From Candidatus Omnitrophota bacterium (GTDB taxonomy: Bacteria; Omnitrophota; Gorgyraeia; Gygaellales; Profunditerraquicolaceae), in NCBI GenBank assembly GCA_963805065.1, contig CAWDSS010000017.1, positions 726-64,725 on the forward strand: a stretch of 64,000 nucleotides of DNA, in the 5' to 3' direction. A program made the translations under genes and the position numbers. The notes beneath the pieces were generated by a model. It had not been told where the DNA came from and made no database searches. It saw only the letters and a program-made list of their open reading frames with translations. Below, piece by piece: positions 21,611-58,744 of this stretch; position 1 is the first letter of the stretch; each line of letters opens with the position of its first letter.

Positions 21611-21659
21611 TTCTCAACCTACCATATTTATACTGCTCCCTATTAACAAATAAGGTGTT

Positions 21660-21878
21660 TTAAGTTAGAATATGGCTCAAGGGGCTAATCCCCAAAAAGG
21701 AACCAATTCTAATGGAAAAAAAGACACTGAACCAACCAGCAAAAGCTGACAATCGTGCTTGAAGCTTAGTAAAAAAAGCTGAATCATGCCTAACTGAAAA
21801 AACTTGCGCCCCATGAGCTAAGCAAAACAAAGTAGAACCACCACCTCCATATTCAAATATACGATTTCTGTGAATAAG
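21660..21878 (-). pseudogene. Start-less fragment resembling the N-terminal SAM-binding part of a class I methyltransferase
   Basis: Hand translation between stops: LIHRNRIFEYGGGGSTLFCLAHGAQVFSVRHDSAFFTKLQARL...SHILT*. The EYGGGGST..GA.V.SV.HD pattern is like motif I/II of Methyltransf-type proteins. There is no in-frame start codon. It lies in the otherwise ORF-free 21611-22121 gap. Confidence 0.3.
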
Positions 21879-22121
21879 TCAGCTTTTAATGAAATCAATA
21901 GCATCAAATGTCATCCATAGAGATAGTGCTAAAAACAAATAATTTTTTTCTTAGATTTAATCCAACGTAGAATATTCTTGCGTTGAATTTAATTTATAGC
22001 CAATTTGAATAAAAATTTAATATCTAACCTAAGAAACAAGGATTTGTTTTTCAGATAAGAATTAAACCTATGCATTCCGGTTATTTCAAAAGTTATCTGT
22101 TCGCTATTTTTCATTCTTTTC

Positions 22122-33465: not shown

Positions 33466-34195
33466 AGTATTTTAATATATACATCCTGTACCAGACTGCC
33501 AAGGTATCCCATGTTGTGCTAAAAACCGCCCCGAACCCTATTCTGCCAAAACTCCTCTGCGGGTTAAGAATTATCGGGGCTTCAGTGATACGATAACCCA
33601 AATGATGCGCATTCACCAGGACTTCCAGGTCAAAAGCAAATTTTTTCACCAGGATCCTGGGCATTACCTCGCGTAATACCTGTGTTTTAAACAACTTTAA
33701 GCCTGTTTGAGTATCATGGCAGGGAAGATTAAATAATGTTTTGATTAAAAAATAATACCCGAGGCTGAATATTTTACGCTGGAGAGGATAACTGACTATC
33801 GAATTAGGGTGCAATTTAGAACCTATGACGATATCCGCATTGTCCAAACGCATAATATCAAAAAGCGTTTGCACCTGCAAAGGGTGTAAATCCATATCCG
33901 CATCTAAAAACACTATGTAATCGCCCCGTATATAATGCATTGCCTTTTTTATTGCCCTGCCTTTTCCCAGGTTAAGGGGATTTTTTTTTGCGATAATTTG
34001 ACCGGGGTATTTTTTAGACAATTCCAATGCTTTTTCAAAAGTATCATCGGTTGAACCGTCATCCAGCAAAATTATTTCCCAGGAACAGCCGAATTCATTA
34101 AAAGTCTTTACTACCTCTTCCAAATTCTGCTCTATCCTCTCCGCCTCATTATAAGCCGGAATGACAATGGAAACTTTTTCTTTCAAGTCTTTCAT
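33386..34195 (-). CDS. Glycosyltransferase family 2, polyprenol-phosphate glycosyltransferase (DPM1/GtrB)-like
   Basis: VSIVIPAYNEAERIEQNLEEV...EIILLDDGSTDDT...GKGRAIKKAM...IVFLDADMD. The last 80 nt overlap the next ORF. Confidence 0.8.
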   Translation of the reverse strand: MKDLKEKVSIVIPAYNEAERIEQNLEEVVKTFNEFGCSWEIILLDDGSTDDTFEKALELSKKYPGQIIAKKNPLNLGKGRAIKKAMHYIRGDYIVFLDADMDLHPLQVQTLFDIMRLDNADIVIGSKLHPNSIVSYPLQRKIFSLGYYFLIKTLFNLPCHDTQTGLKLFKTQVLREVMPRILVKKFAFDLEVLVNAHHLGYRITEAPIILNPQRSFGRIGFGAVFSTTWDTLAVWYRMYILKYYDRIDYHRRKNLAKEFRRMRKGMPGA

Positions 34196-55146: not shown

Positions 55147-55665
55147 TTAGTTCCTTATTTTTATTTCAGCCTGCTCGTTATCTGTTATCTGTTGACTGGT
55201 CGTAGGCTTCTTTTGCGCCGTAATATTTACTTGTATAATCCTGCTTGCCTGCCTTAAAAACTGTAAGGACGTAATATCGTTAGCAATTGTCCAGTTTGTT
55301 ACTCCAAAGCTGCGTATAACTTGGTGCGTAGCATTATTAAGCGAATATTTAAAAGGTCCGGTCCATTGTATGTTACCGTTTGGTGCCACAACGCTGCCGC
55401 TGGAATTATCCGGCAACCAAAATGTCACGGAATTACTTGACGCGCCAACAGCCAGATTTATGCTGTTAACTCCAGAGGCCGGGCCTTCACTTAGGTCTTT
55501 ATCCATGGTCATAATCGCTCGTATTACCTGGTCGCGTAGCTCAATCGTAGCATCGCCGGTAAACCAGGAGCGATTCTCGATAGAAAAAGTCATGAACAGC
55601 GCTGCCATGATAATGCTCATGATTAAAGTAGTAACAAGTACCTCTATTAATGTAAAGCCTCTCAT
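55147..55665 (-). CDS. Minor pilin (PilW-like), prepilin N-terminal domain
   Basis: MRG/FTLIEVLVTTLIMSIIMAALF. Confidence 0.7.
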   Translation of the reverse strand: MRGFTLIEVLVTTLIMSIIMAALFMTFSIENRSWFTGDATIELRDQVIRAIMTMDKDLSEGPASGVNSINLAVGASSNSVTFWLPDNSSGSVVAPNGNIQWTGPFKYSLNNATHQVIRSFGVTNWTIANDITSLQFLRQASRIIQVNITAQKKPTTSQQITDNEQAEIKIRN

Positions 55666-55672
55666 ATTTAAT

Positions 55673-56089
55673 TTAACGGTCAGCTATCAATGTAACAAGT
55701 TGAGTGGGTGAATTGGTACAGTTGCCGTTTGCATCTTCCACTCCGAAAATCCTATTATTTTGTTTCCAACAAACGCTTATTGTAACCTGGTAGAGCACCG
55801 GATTCGTAACATTAACAGAAACTACTACGCTATTTGCTATATTTAGAGCAGTTAGATTGGGCACTTTGGGAGGATACATGAATCCGGGGATCTGCGGAAA
55901 GGGAGTGTTACGTATCTGTTCCATTAATCCCTGGGCATAATTGGTGGCAATATTTACAATTTTTGAGGTGTTAAGAAAACCCGTGCAACCCACATATGCT
56001 GCCATTATTCCACAGAGCGCAATGGCGACTACCACGGTTGCCAGCAACGCTTCTGCCAAAGTGAAACCCTTTTGAGATGTTTTACGCAT
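55673..56089 (-). CDS. Minor pilin (PilV-like), prepilin N-terminal domain
   Basis: SQKG/FTLAEALLATVVVAIALCGI. Confidence 0.7.
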   Translation of the reverse strand: MRKTSQKGFTLAEALLATVVVAIALCGIMAAYVGCTGFLNTSKIVNIATNYAQGLMEQIRNTPFPQIPGFMYPPKVPNLTALNIANSVVVSVNVTNPVLYQVTISVCWKQNNRIFGVEDANGNCTNSPTQLVTLIADR

Positions 56090-56193: not shown

Positions 56194-56344
56194 TACTACC
56201 TCCTTGGCAGTGCAGCCAGCTGAGTTTCAGCTCTGTCACTTTGCGTCCCAAGATTGCTCCTGGTTTGCCTTTATCAATGAGTATATCCTTAACCTGTTCT
56301 CTATAATAAATATACACTATATTTTGTTGCTTTTCAAGGCTATA

Positions 56345-57532
56345 TTACACTATGTTTTGAGCTCTAATAAGGCAGGAAACCAGCTGATTTTTTAAGTTTT
56401 TACCGGATTTAATACGAATTTTTAAGTAATTATCCGTGTGACCTTCCCATAAACCAGATTTTTCCTTTGTTTCAAATAACACATTCATACGTTTATTGAA
56501 AAATCTTCTCTTATATTTTGACGACAAATCAGAACAAATTTTTCCCAATACCAAACTCCTTTGTTTTATTACCAAAGGACTAACTTTACCTGTGAGATTA
56601 TTTGCTTGTGTGCCCTGCCTCTGGGAATAAGGAAATACATGCACTTTAAGAGGTAAAATCTTTCTCATTAAATCTACGGTGTTGGCAAAATTTTTTTCGC
56701 TTTCACCCGGAAAACCCACCAAGCAATCAGTAGTGATACTCAACCCTGAAACACGCCTGTTTAATTTCCTGATCAGCCTAAGGTAATCATCCCGGGAATA
56801 CTTTCTGTTCATTTTCTTAAGGATTTCGTTGTCTCCGCTTTGTATAGGAATGTGTAAATGCCTGCACAATTTTTTTGATTTTGAAATTTTATCGATTAAT
56901 TCATCTGTGATGTCTCCTGCTTCTATAGAGCTTAACCTTATGCGTAGCAGGCCTGTAATTTCTTCTAATTTCAAGATTAGCGTAACAAGAGAAGTCTTTT
57001 GCTTTAGGTCTTTGCCGTATGAGCCAAGGTTTATGCCTGTCAGCACTAATTCTTTAAAACCTTTTTTAACCAGAAAATTCGCCTCATTTAAAACCTCCTC
57101 CAACTGCCTGCTGCGGGACCTGCCTCTTACCAAGGGCACCTTGCAATATGAACAAAAATTATCGCAGCCATCCTGGATCTTCAAGAATGCGCGCGTGTGG
57201 CCGCAGAAATCGCTTATACCGTCGGGAAAAAATCTTTTGCTGATAATTGCATCTATTAGCCTTATCTTGGATAAAGACACGCAATCTTTTTCCACAAGGC
57301 AGCCGGTAACGATAACTTTTGCCTTTGGGTTTTCTCTTTTCGCCCTGCGCACAAGGCCAAGAGACTCTGAATCTGCCCTGTGCGTTACTGTGCAGGTATT
57401 AATCAGATAAACTTGCGCAGGCTTCCCGTCAGAGATTTCTTTAAAGCCTTTCTGACTAAACCGCTCTCTGATACTCTGCGTATCGTATTGATTAACCTTG
57501 CAACCCAATGTATAAAATTTTATAGTCTTCAT
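56345..57532 (-). CDS. mtaB: tRNA t6A37 methylthiotransferase MtaB
   Basis: FYTLGCKVNQYDTQ and INTCTVTHRADSE (N-terminal cluster), IQDGCDNFCSYCKVP (radical SAM CxxxCxxC), and a C-terminal TRAM-like region. Confidence 0.87.
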   Translation of the reverse strand: MKTIKFYTLGCKVNQYDTQSIRERFSQKGFKEISDGKPAQVYLINTCTVTHRADSESLGLVRRAKRENPKAKVIVTGCLVEKDCVSLSKIRLIDAIISKRFFPDGISDFCGHTRAFLKIQDGCDNFCSYCKVPLVRGRSRSRQLEEVLNEANFLVKKGFKELVLTGINLGSYGKDLKQKTSLVTLILKLEEITGLLRIRLSSIEAGDITDELIDKISKSKKLCRHLHIPIQSGDNEILKKMNRKYSRDDYLRLIRKLNRRVSGLSITTDCLVGFPGESEKNFANTVDLMRKILPLKVHVFPYSQRQGTQANNLTGKVSPLVIKQRSLVLGKICSDLSSKYKRRFFNKRMNVLFETKEKSGLWEGHTDNYLKIRIKSGKNLKNQLVSCLIRAQNIV

Positions 57533-57539
57533 ATAATTT

Positions 57540-57754
57540 AATGAATCTGCCGGTTTTCTCGCTCAGCACGATTTTTTAACGCCAATGATCTTTCGTTCTT
57601 CGGCGGCTGCTGAACTCGTCGCATTTGCTCTAGCAAATGCTCCTCAAACAGCATCGCCGTGCCAGTGTTGTCGCTTCGCTCCACTGGCATTCCCTCATCA
57701 CTCAAGCTCCATTGGCTAAAATCGTGATTCGCTCGAAAATCCGGCAGATTCATT
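57540..57754. ncRNA. Candidate structured RNA/element, domain 1 (about 215 nt closed by a 14-bp helix)
   Basis: AATGAATCTGCCGG (57540-53) pairs with CCGGCAGATTCATT (57741-54). Nested helices are TTTTC/GAAAA, CACGATTTT/AAAATCGTG and GCCAATG/CATTGGC. Internal hairpins are GCATTTGC-TCTA-GCAAATGC and GCCAGTG-14nt-CACTGGC. GC-rich, with no convincing ORF. Confidence 0.3.
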
Positions 57755-57768
57755 TTCCAGCTTTCCGA

Positions 57769-57976
57769 GCGCCTGCTCTATTAGCGGATGGCTTGGCTGA
57801 TGTTTCGAGGGACATGGAGGCAAGGAACGGGCAAGGTTTCCGCATCCGGCTCCTACATAAAAAGAACGGACTTATACACGGCCCGGATGCGGAAGAGCGA
57901 CGCAGCCGACCTGAGCGAAGCATTTCCACGCTGGGGAAATGCGAGCGTTCCCGAGAAACACAGACAAGGCAGGCGC
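57769..57976. ncRNA. Candidate structured RNA/element, domain 2 (about 208 nt closed by GCGCCTGC/GCAGGCGC)
   Basis: Closing helix 57769-76 / 57969-76. GTTTCGAGGGA (57802-12) pairs with TTCCCGAGAAAC (57948-59). There is a 12-bp hairpin TTCCGCATCCGG (57838-49) / CCGGATGCGGAA (57883-94), and a hairpin GCATTTCC/GGAAATGC. Confidence 0.25.
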
Positions 57977-58006
57977 GTAGTGCAGGACGCGAGAAGAACA
58001 ATAAGG

Positions 58007-58744
58007 TTATTGAGGACTTAAGTATAACTTAATGAAACTCGCTACGGTCACTGCAGCTGTTTCAACTCGCAAGACAGATTCACCTAGCGAAACTGCCACA
58101 AACCCATTTCTTTTAGCCAAATCAATTTCCTCGTCGGCAAAATCGCCTTCCGGCCCGATAAGCACTAAAATATTTTTAGGCTTGCTGTTAAGCGCATCTT
58201 TCAAGAATTTTCTTTTTCCTGGTAAGGTAGGAATTAATTTTAAATCATAATCTTTCGAACCTAAAATGACCTTTTTTATATCGCTTACAACATCAATGGC
58301 CGGAACGGTAGTACGCTGGCTCTGCTGGCTGGCGCTTAAAGCTATGCGTTTCCAACGTTCATGCAGCAGGGATTCCTTGTGTTTATCTAACTTCACAACC
58401 ACGCGCTCTGTTTTTAAAGGAATAATCCTATCCACGCCTAACTGGGTCAATTTATCGACAATATCCGACATATTGGATTTTTTGGGGATTGCGCAGGCGA
58501 TAGTCAAATTAATCTTATTTTGTTTATTTACGGACAATCGTTTGTTTTTAATCTGCAGGGTGATGGTGTTTTGGATTTTTTCAATAATACAATCATACTC
58601 ATTGCCATTTTTATCAACGATAGTCAGCTTATCTTTGGGTTTAAGCCGCAAAACATCCCTGATATGATGAGCCTGATTATAGTCAACAATAGTTATCGTA
58701 TTTTGAAAAATATTGCTTTGGGTAGAAAAAAACCTGTTCATCAA
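58007..58744 (-). CDS. rsmE: 16S rRNA (uracil1498-N3)-methyltransferase
   Basis: MNRFF start, PUA-like N-terminus, C-terminal SPOUT block LIGPEGDFADEEI...VSLGESVLRVETAAV. Confidence 0.87.
   Translation of the reverse strand: MMNRFFSTQSNIFQNTITIVDYNQAHHIRDVLRLKPKDKLTIVDKNGNEYDCIIEKIQNTITLQIKNKRLSVNKQNKINLTIACAIPKKSNMSDIVDKLTQLGVDRIIPLKTERVVVKLDKHKESLLHERWKRIALSASQQSQRTTVPAIDVVSDIKKVILGSKDYDLKLIPTLPGKRKFLKDALNSKPKNILVLIGPEGDFADEEIDLAKRNGFVAVSLGESVLRVETAAVTVASFIKLYLSPQ

Follow-up and report, generated by a model that had tools for sequence, protein, structure and literature searches.

Here we characterize a 474-nucleotide (nt) island (57533-58006) that separates rsmE from mtaB in a Candidatus Omnitrophota bacterium (assembly GCA_963805065.1, contig CAWDSS010000017.1). 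All positions refer to the 64,000-nt stretch of this contig that was analyzed, which we call the window, and homologues of MtaB place the source organism in the Omnitrophota. The island is composed of two structured modules, A and B (Table 1). Relatives of both occur in multiple copies beside unrelated genes, and the junction that they occupy here is empty in some related genomes. The guanine-plus-cytosine (GC) content of the island is 52.5% relative to 39.5% for the whole window, with a sliding-window peak of 0.575.

Table 1. Features of the rsmE-mtaB region of the window
Feature	Position	Strand	Description
c-di-GMP-I-GGC riboswitch	56202-56278	-	Rfam RF03167; 61.1 bits (gathering score 59)
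mtaB	56345-57532	-	Pfam Radical_SAM and UPF0004
Direct-repeat copy 1	57532-57548		TATAATTTAATGAATCT (gene strand AGATTCATTAAATTATA); overlaps the last 9 nt of A
Module A	57540-57754	- (purine-rich strand, better fold)	215-nt imperfect palindrome
A-B spacer	57755-57766		Short, unconserved
Module B	57767-57978 (about)	+	About 210 nt; second repeat family, head-to-head with A
Stretch from B to repeat copy 2	57979-58022	-	Last four rsmE codons and stop (LSPQ, stop)
rsmE	58007-58744	-	Pfam Methyltrans_RNA and PUA_4
Direct-repeat copy 2	58023-58039		TATAACTTAATGAAACT; inside the rsmE 3' end, encodes S-F-I-K-L-Y

Both strands of the island are predicted to fold far better than their dinucleotide shuffles. 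The minimum free energy is -187.9 kcal/mol on the minus strand and -183.2 kcal/mol on the plus strand, against shuffle averages of -154 and -149 (z=-5.8 and -5.7), and on neither strand was any of 100 shuffles as good. The initial annotation, made from the letters alone, had described two closed multi-helix domains, and these are found in the minimum free energy structure together with the helices that it named, which also emerge from a repeat finder and from the sequence itself. Thus, AATGAATCTGCCGG and CCGGCAGATTCATT form a perfect 14-bp helix, which the repeat finder returned as 18 nt at 94% identity followed by another 22 nt at 77%; 23-nt inverted arms are present at 57838-57860 and 57872-57894; and the complementarity of GCGCCTGC to GCAGGCGC can be read straight off the island. 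The two domains are not, however, the halves of a single large non-coding RNA, which had been one of the readings offered; each is a module in its own right and belongs to a dispersed repeat family.

Module A has a long closing helix (AATGAATCTGCCGG.../...CCGGCAGATTCATT) and a conserved internal loop whose two sides, on the purine-rich strand, both read GAGCGA; in principle, this loop could pair as G.A/A.G - G-C/C-G - G.A/A.G. Helices P2-P4 connect to a three-way junction that bears two hairpins. The window copy matches a 69-copy family profile over its full length (nhmmer, E=4.7e-59) and folds at -96.6 kcal/mol on the minus strand and -88.2 kcal/mol on the plus strand. The family core of module B reads TTAGCGGrTGGCTTGG ... 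CAAGrCAGG, and the window copy matches the B profile at 57779-57978 (nhmmer, E=1.7e-33). It represents a long-hairpin subtype (57838-57894), with GCGCCTGC/GCAGGCGC as its local closing helix, that also occurs at an unrelated locus (L077).

A protein-coding reading of the island was rejected. None of the four overlapping open reading frames (ORFs) of the gap has a Pfam match, and a search of 5.8 billion proteins returned no more than 23 hypothetical ORFs, all fragmentary (42-102 aa). The 71-aa ORF (57538-57753, minus strand) is open on that strand in 18 of 69 A copies, whose lengths are evenly spread modulo 3 (26/25/18), so that the frame is not kept. The pyrimidine-rich strand is free of stop codons in 39 of the 69 copies, which we put down to composition, because A lengths are not multiples of three. 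The description of the island as GC-rich, ORF-poor and non-coding is therefore borne out. It was also said to be the only long gene-free gap in the window, which is incorrect: at a threshold of 100 aa and with a crude ORF caller, 21611-22121 (511 nt, GC 0.32) and 33466-34191 (726 nt, GC 0.40) are likewise without an ORF, and neither matches the A or B profile. No known RNA family was recognized in the island. With permissive filters (E<=1, both strands of 57300-58300), the sole Rfam match was a chance L31-leader inside mtaB; at the gathering threshold, the whole window gave only a tRNA and a c-di-GMP riboswitch elsewhere, and 18 related loci gave only tRNAs. ARAGORN found no transfer-messenger RNA in the island.

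The empty, overlapping rsmE/mtaB junction of relatives identifies the island as an insertion. L133, L215 and L216 share with the window the synteny of Memo/AMMECR1, DsbD, rsmE and mtaB; in them, the last two genes overlap by 14 nt with nothing between them (...TTA TAT GAA..., the mtaB ATG lying within the Tyr-Glu codons). The closest relatives, with MtaB 68-74% identical, also hold related sequence upstream of mtaB, in rearranged form. L002 has the order seen in the window (B reversed, A, mtaB); the whole unit is inverted in L003 and L004 (rsmE, A, B, mtaB); and L005 carries B forward, an A fragment and a duplicated B end. At the L134 junction, a mini-B of about 75 nt (L134:2205-2300) lies within the 3' end of rsmE and is read through by the ORF, giving a 266-aa RsmE with the tail LTGGCQTEPLPRATKVSTARWRADRTR, whose stop codon is the TAA of the element's own terminus. 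Small B variants resembling this mini-B were also seen in L082, in L101 and as the core of an A' element in L003. The L214 junction (L214:1414-1500) is occupied by an unrelated short palindrome, GGGACACCC / GGGTGTCCC, present three times. GGGAC..GTCCC palindromes akin to it flank A elsewhere (L011, L079), and several repeat families seem to coexist in the intergenic DNA of Omnitrophota.

In the window, the insertion is bracketed by direct repeats that a repeat finder showed to be identical at 15 of 17 positions. A chance match was ruled out, since comparison with the empty junctions reveals the mtaB-proximal copy as a relic of the rsmE 3' end (..FIKLY), homologous to it and joined to the A of the mtaB ATG. 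The duplication left both overlapping genes intact. RsmE ends in SFIKLYLSPQ in the window, SFIRLYFSDK in L003, SFIRLYEDD in L215 and FVRLYENS in L133, and because the LSPQ tail of the window differs from that of every relative, it was probably introduced with the insertion or arose from it. At 8 of 9 positions, the host site AGTTTCATT agrees with AGATTCATT, the conserved terminus of A, a resemblance that hints at a target preference for sequence similar to the element's own end.

Neither module is bound to this locus, as the view of a single local element would have it; both are multi-copy, beside unrelated genes and in either orientation. The 26-nt terminus of domain 1 (module A), used as a pattern against 185,579 species genomes, matched 7 loci, each in a different genome; six of these genomes are labelled Omnitrophota and one Planctomycetales. 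None of the loci adjoins mtaB or rsmE, and five hold the full 210-240-nt A module. The locus labelled 'uncultured Planctomycetales bacterium' (L006, CAZJFL010000010.1) has a full A and a mini-B, and could reflect either a mislabelled bin or a family that extends past the Omnitrophota. A 21-base internal A pattern occurs in at least 120 metagenome contigs, and a census with nhmmer gave 137 A and 42 B matches in 133 sequences (830 kb). The density of A is low, with about 5 additional copies in ~830 kb of flanks, or ~1 per 100-150 kb; two full copies share a contig in five cases, and the window has one A and one B, with no further copies by blastn and nhmmer. Plasmid and phage collections gave no blastn match to the island, and two A patterns had zero matches in viral contigs. 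A B 15-mer matched viral contigs 79 times; none of these matches fit the A or B profile, and they were treated as chance.

The genes scanned beside A, on its right-hand side, are ordinary housekeeping genes. These 85 ORFs comprise 104 Pfam families (e.g. PGK, TGT, MreB, RuvB and MurJ), none of which occurs more than twice, and there is no recurring partner; an associated protein family was rejected for these right-hand neighbours. Copies vary in ways beyond substitution. Some are nested (B inside a minimal B in L061; L101), others are partial or truncated (L005, L012), and L002 and L003 hold chimeras in which an A outer stem encloses a B-type core. Size variants of A differ by an optional P2' hairpin and by expanded P6/P7 at fixed internal positions. 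Two loci have a tRNA gene close to B, 20-90 nt past its outer end (L030:3132-3203, L051:2860-2932). A Logan contig with identical MtaB, from the same organism (L001, ERR10755942_464512), begins at a point equivalent to ~57608 of the window, inside A, as assemblies break at repeats.

A and B are also related to each other in a fixed way. Their purine strands are alike, so an A-B pair forms a large imperfect inverted repeat. In all 18 pairs that are no more than 120 nt apart, B is found on the CAGATTCATT side of A, with the same orientation in the alignment, and ten more A...B pairs, 130-1130 nt apart, have the same arrangement. The right flanks of A comprise 91 distinct sequences, 28 of which form one similarity cluster; similarity matches among right flanks are in plus orientation in 150 cases vs. 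2 in minus. The cluster includes a third structured repeat, module C (..TTTGCTGGAGCGTGCATTAGAAAATTTTCAGCACGCGGAAGCAAAG.., sometimes ~200 nt), which replaces B beside A in one orientation. It was seen on the right flank of A in L027, L043, L058, L064, L084, L097 and L124 and is absent from the window.

The structure of both modules is maintained by compensatory changes. For A, we aligned 69 distinct full-length copies (alignment A1). A first MAFFT alignment in the pyrimidine-rich orientation gave a partial structure with RNAalifold, and realignment in the purine-rich orientation gave the full one, a rod from P1 to P4 followed by the three-way junction. Standard pairs fill 93.1% of the cells of its 73 pairs, and 43 pairs show double changes. 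As controls, the partner column was slid by 1-3 positions, which left 37-46% paired and 12-22 pairs with double changes, or columns were shuffled, which left 82% and 31. The terminal helix covaries too (AATGAACCTG/CAGGTTCATT, AATGCCTCTG/CAGAGGCATT). For B (32 copies), 90% of cells in 46 pairs are paired and 35 pairs have double changes, compared with 40-45% and 11-18 pairs in slid controls. The compensatory changes that the initial annotation had proposed to look for are thus present at levels far above the slid controls in both families.

The two strands of each module are not equivalent. In 68 of 69 A copies, the more stable fold is that of the purine-rich strand, which is the minus strand of the window, by 13.4 kcal/mol; for B, the plus strand of the window (the strand of its model) is favored by 8.5 kcal/mol, in 32 of 32 copies. 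On the purine-rich strand of A, GU pairs outnumber AC by 149 to 52, and purine-purine mismatches (RR) far exceed pyrimidine-pyrimidine ones (YY). This asymmetry is the same in both gene-orientation classes (GU:AC 32:13 and 67:36; RR:YY 87:18 and 130:35). It is hence intrinsic to the element and not set by the direction of host genes, and since it is the same whether A is sense or antisense to its neighbours, the host operon transcript is not the molecule on which structural selection acts most strongly.

Copies appear to turn over at the sites that they occupy. Those at orthologous sites (upstream of hisB and of MTHFR) rank from 13th to 70th of 114 in mutual similarity, and the hisB copy of L093 has its closest match in the window copy (88.9%). 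In L005, an inverted B precedes mtaB; it shares 93.6% identity with the window B, whereas the two mtaB genes are 73% identical (nucleotide). By these comparisons, one junction can be occupied by different family members in related species, and the high identity of B relative to mtaB, together with orthologous copies that are not nearest neighbours, suggests that copies have been re-inserted, replaced or exchanged, and not simply inherited vertically.

Based on these observations, the island is probably an inserted A and B of new structured palindromic intergenic repeat families, similar in kind to repetitive extragenic palindromic (REP) sequences and bacterial interspersed mosaic elements (BIME), enterobacterial repetitive intergenic consensus (ERIC) sequences or miniature inverted-repeat transposable elements (MITEs). 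A and B would have inserted into an rsmE/mtaB junction that originally overlapped. Presumably they move or are exchanged in trans, now or formerly, via a folded single-strand intermediate, for which single-stranded DNA would be the likeliest form, as in systems of the REP/RAYT type, and which would be recognized by its fold. Such an intermediate would account for helices that are kept on one strand regardless of host gene direction. At the rsmE-mtaB locus itself, the pair is not a dedicated mtaB regulator and is probably just transcribed along with the operon, as a large spacer rich in hairpins.

REP and BIME elements are imperfect palindromes that occupy intergenic regions, mostly within transcription units, in either orientation. 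Their units pair head-to-head into a bigger palindromic doublet, the mosaic at a given site varies between related genomes, target sites are not regularly duplicated, and hairpin structure outweighs sequence. A and B resemble the REP/BIME/REPIN group of proteobacteria, which is mobilized by RAYT (a Y1 HUH transposase), in being palindromic, intergenic and paired in inverted fashion (18/18), in occurring in either orientation with a mosaic that varies by site, in having no regular target-site duplication, and in conserving structure over sequence. They differ in being multi-branched units of 100-270 nt, compared with 20-40 nt for REP and ~100 nt for REPIN; in forming two distinct families that may have a single orphan ORF between them; and in belonging to another host phylum. 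Their copy density looks far lower than that of REP elements, of which a genome has hundreds, as judged from the 64-kb window and about 830 kb of flanking sequence. No RAYT-like gene came up for A or B, although no search aimed at RAYT was made.

ERIC sequences, also called intergenic repeat units (IRU), are long imperfect palindromes of 127 bp in transcribed intergenic DNA, found in either orientation. They have size variants that arise via segments at fixed internal positions, are moderately divergent and have no obvious transposase. The likeness to A and B extends to the long intergenic imperfect palindrome, the size variants (P2', P6/P7) and the moderate divergence. A and B are, however, unrelated to ERIC in sequence, have a more complex fold with a three-way junction and purine-rich loops, and comprise two modules instead of one.

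MITEs such as Correia/NEMIS of Neisseria and RUP and BOX of pneumococcus are likewise short, non-coding, dispersed and located near gene ends, with terminal inverted repeats (14-26 bp in A) and nested or truncated copies. Among the possibilities raised at the outset, a MITE with 14-bp terminal inverted repeats came closest, and its short, non-coding, dispersed character and its terminal inverted repeats hold. The match is incomplete, since there is no general target-site duplication, copies are not near-identical, and the fold is conserved over the termini. A flanking duplication other than an artefact was seen at the window copy only, out of 79 copies of A. Moreover, the termini of A covary and are not sequence-invariant, unlike inverted repeats bound by a transposase, and among the neighbour families listed and the cargo, the latter being orphan or NYN-domain ORFs, we saw no insertion sequence that could be a parent with the same ends.

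Several of our results weigh against this repeat-family reading. No transposase is present in the 25 most frequent Pfam families of the 85 right-side neighbours, no recombinase in the neighbour families listed for that side, and no mobilizing enzyme was found or enriched there among the top families listed. General target-site duplication was rejected in a comparison of 79 A copies with a control; only the 15/17 match of the window and one tandem-copy artefact exceeded it. There is no sign of a recent burst, given that within-contig pairs of A are 64-90% identical and no closer than copies on different contigs (median 74%) and that density is low; the helices of a purely selfish element should decay unless it is copied anew. 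B does not have the GU bias of A (GU:AC 26:32). The placement of A relative to genes, considered below, could reflect a function at the level of the host, and gene contexts of both modules were obtained with our own simple ORF caller.

A more ambitious proposal, which we put forward tentatively, is that A and B are either the two structured ends of an unrecognized Omnitrophota mobile unit or exchangeable intergenic module, or members of a large paralogous family of structured RNAs. In the former case, the unit may be recognized in folded, single-stranded form, its purine-rich strand (the one with the GAGCGA loops) pointing away from the center on each side. It may carry one passenger gene, and it may home to gene junctions that mimic its own termini (..TTCATTAA.. 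/ ..ATTTTAAC..). In the latter case, which would be equally novel, RNAs of 100-270 nt may share a GAGCGA tandem-G.A architecture and a trans-acting partner.

A related alternative, which we regard as unlikely, is that A and B are multi-copy, independently expressed genes for structured non-coding RNAs, transcribed from the purine-rich strand as a divergent pair. The strong covariation and the strand asymmetry that ignores host gene direction would both fit, as would conserved unpaired motifs (the GAGCGA repeats, CUCAAGC and, on the complementary strand, UGGCUAAAA) and the retention of the fold at a median identity of ~74%; having no Rfam match, such RNAs would constitute a new class. Genes of this kind would nevertheless require two divergent promoters, for which there is no space in A-B spacers that go down to 5-10 nt. 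Spacers at 19 loci are mostly 5-60 nt (one ~80), AT-rich and unconserved, and no conserved promoter was visible across them or found by consensus scan. Likewise, a consensus scan of both strands found no promoter-like or terminator-like site in the window island, with matches only inside the flanking genes, and the right flanks of solo A are mostly unique (51/91 singletons). Nested, truncated and chimeric forms are typical of repeats and not of genes, and replacement at orthologous sites also argues against this alternative.

Less probable still is that the copies are intercistronic hairpins retained for differential mRNA stability or processing, or for uncoupling translation between adjacent genes, and that they act on the operon mRNA in the way of enterobacterial REP or ERIC elements. 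In its favor, A lies almost exclusively between co-directional genes (63, i.e. 43 + 20, compared with 6 divergent and 0 convergent; crude ORF caller). The AATGA terminus of A coincides with the upstream stop codon (within -4..+2) in 19 of 64 cases and precedes a start codon by 8-16 nt in 9 of 30; in solo copies, the purine strand is antisense to genes by ~3:1. The orientation bias and the coincidence with stop codons are the features that could denote a host-level function, and both strands fold far better than shuffles. Yet in some three quarters of solo copies the best-preserved strand (GU over AC, with G.A mismatches tolerated) runs antisense to its operon, the asymmetry does not flip with orientation, and the empty overlapping junction in relatives shows the element to be dispensable here.

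We consider it very improbable that A and B are recombination sites that fold as single strands and bracket gene cassettes, after the fashion of integron attC sites, with the window representing an empty site. This idea derives from the ten spaced A...B pairs with their fixed arrangement. Eight of the gaps were examined, and seven hold one unrelated, mostly orphan ORF on either strand (one with an NYN domain), while the eighth (L047) has short overlapping ORFs only. As in attC, the fold is strand-specific, with extra-helical or mismatched bases, and is kept by structure, and an occasional orphan ORF that looks promoterless lies beside the site. Against this, most units have no cargo, the neighbours are housekeeping genes with no integrase among those listed, and no array of sites in the same orientation was seen. 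The elements are 2-4 times the size of attC, no R/L core boxes (GTTRRRY-type) occur in alignment A1, and there are two different inverted end modules, as opposed to one site per cassette.

The initial annotation had suggested a single locus-specific RNA, whether of 6S type or a leader acting in cis on mtaB, and this can be practically dismissed: the ~200-nt length and rod-like closing stem of A do recall 6S RNA (RF00013), and A ends 7 nt upstream of an mtaB ATG that has no Shine-Dalgarno (SD) sequence, but no 6S or other Rfam family matches at E<=1, A is multi-copy beside unrelated genes with no gene-like context and has a branched apical domain and a small GAGCGA loop in place of a large central bubble, and the rsmE-mtaB junction is empty in L133, L215 and L216 and holds inverted elements in L003 and L005, with no mtaB at the seven genome loci. 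The missing SD sequence was correctly noted and is unremarkable, since a crude test detects an SD-like motif 5-15 nt upstream of no more than 20 of the 54 window genes.

Other features of the region deserve mention in their own right. All 54 ORFs of the window longer than 150 aa (crude caller) are on the minus strand. The riboswitch listed in Table 1 lies just downstream of mtaB and upstream of prepilin-type (N_methyl) genes (55147-56089), a position that suggests a pilus or pseudopilus operon under the control of c-di-GMP. Downstream of mtaB, where the window has these pilin-like genes, L133 encodes a 503-aa protein with Hint/PT-HINT/intein-type domains (L133:3777-5288).

A full-text literature search on repeats, MITEs and structured or non-coding RNA of Omnitrophota/Omnitrophica found no description of A or B, and Rfam 15 has no family that matches them. 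The candidate undescribed structured RNA of the initial annotation is therefore non-coding, absent from Rfam and genuinely structured with covarying helices, as had been supposed, and differs from that proposal in being a repeat family instead of an RNA specific to the locus. Interspersed palindromic repeats are a familiar category. What is new here is the size of the elements, their branched and covarying fold, the GAGCGA loops, the head-to-head two-module unit with occasional cargo, and the host phylum.

The Omnitrophota are widespread and nearly all uncultured, and their non-coding content is essentially uncharted. Since A elements are common (at least 120 contigs), automated RNA-discovery pipelines will keep flagging them as novel structured RNAs, a misreading that is averted once A and B are recognized as a repeat family. 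The elements also break assemblies, as illustrated by the public contig of the same organism that ends inside A, and they alter the ends of genes: the C-terminal tail of RsmE differs at each occupied site, and in L134 the ORF reads into the element. If the fold were the substrate of single-strand transposition or recombination, or represented a new class of RNA, then the alignments and the A-B architecture would provide a direct entry point for its study.

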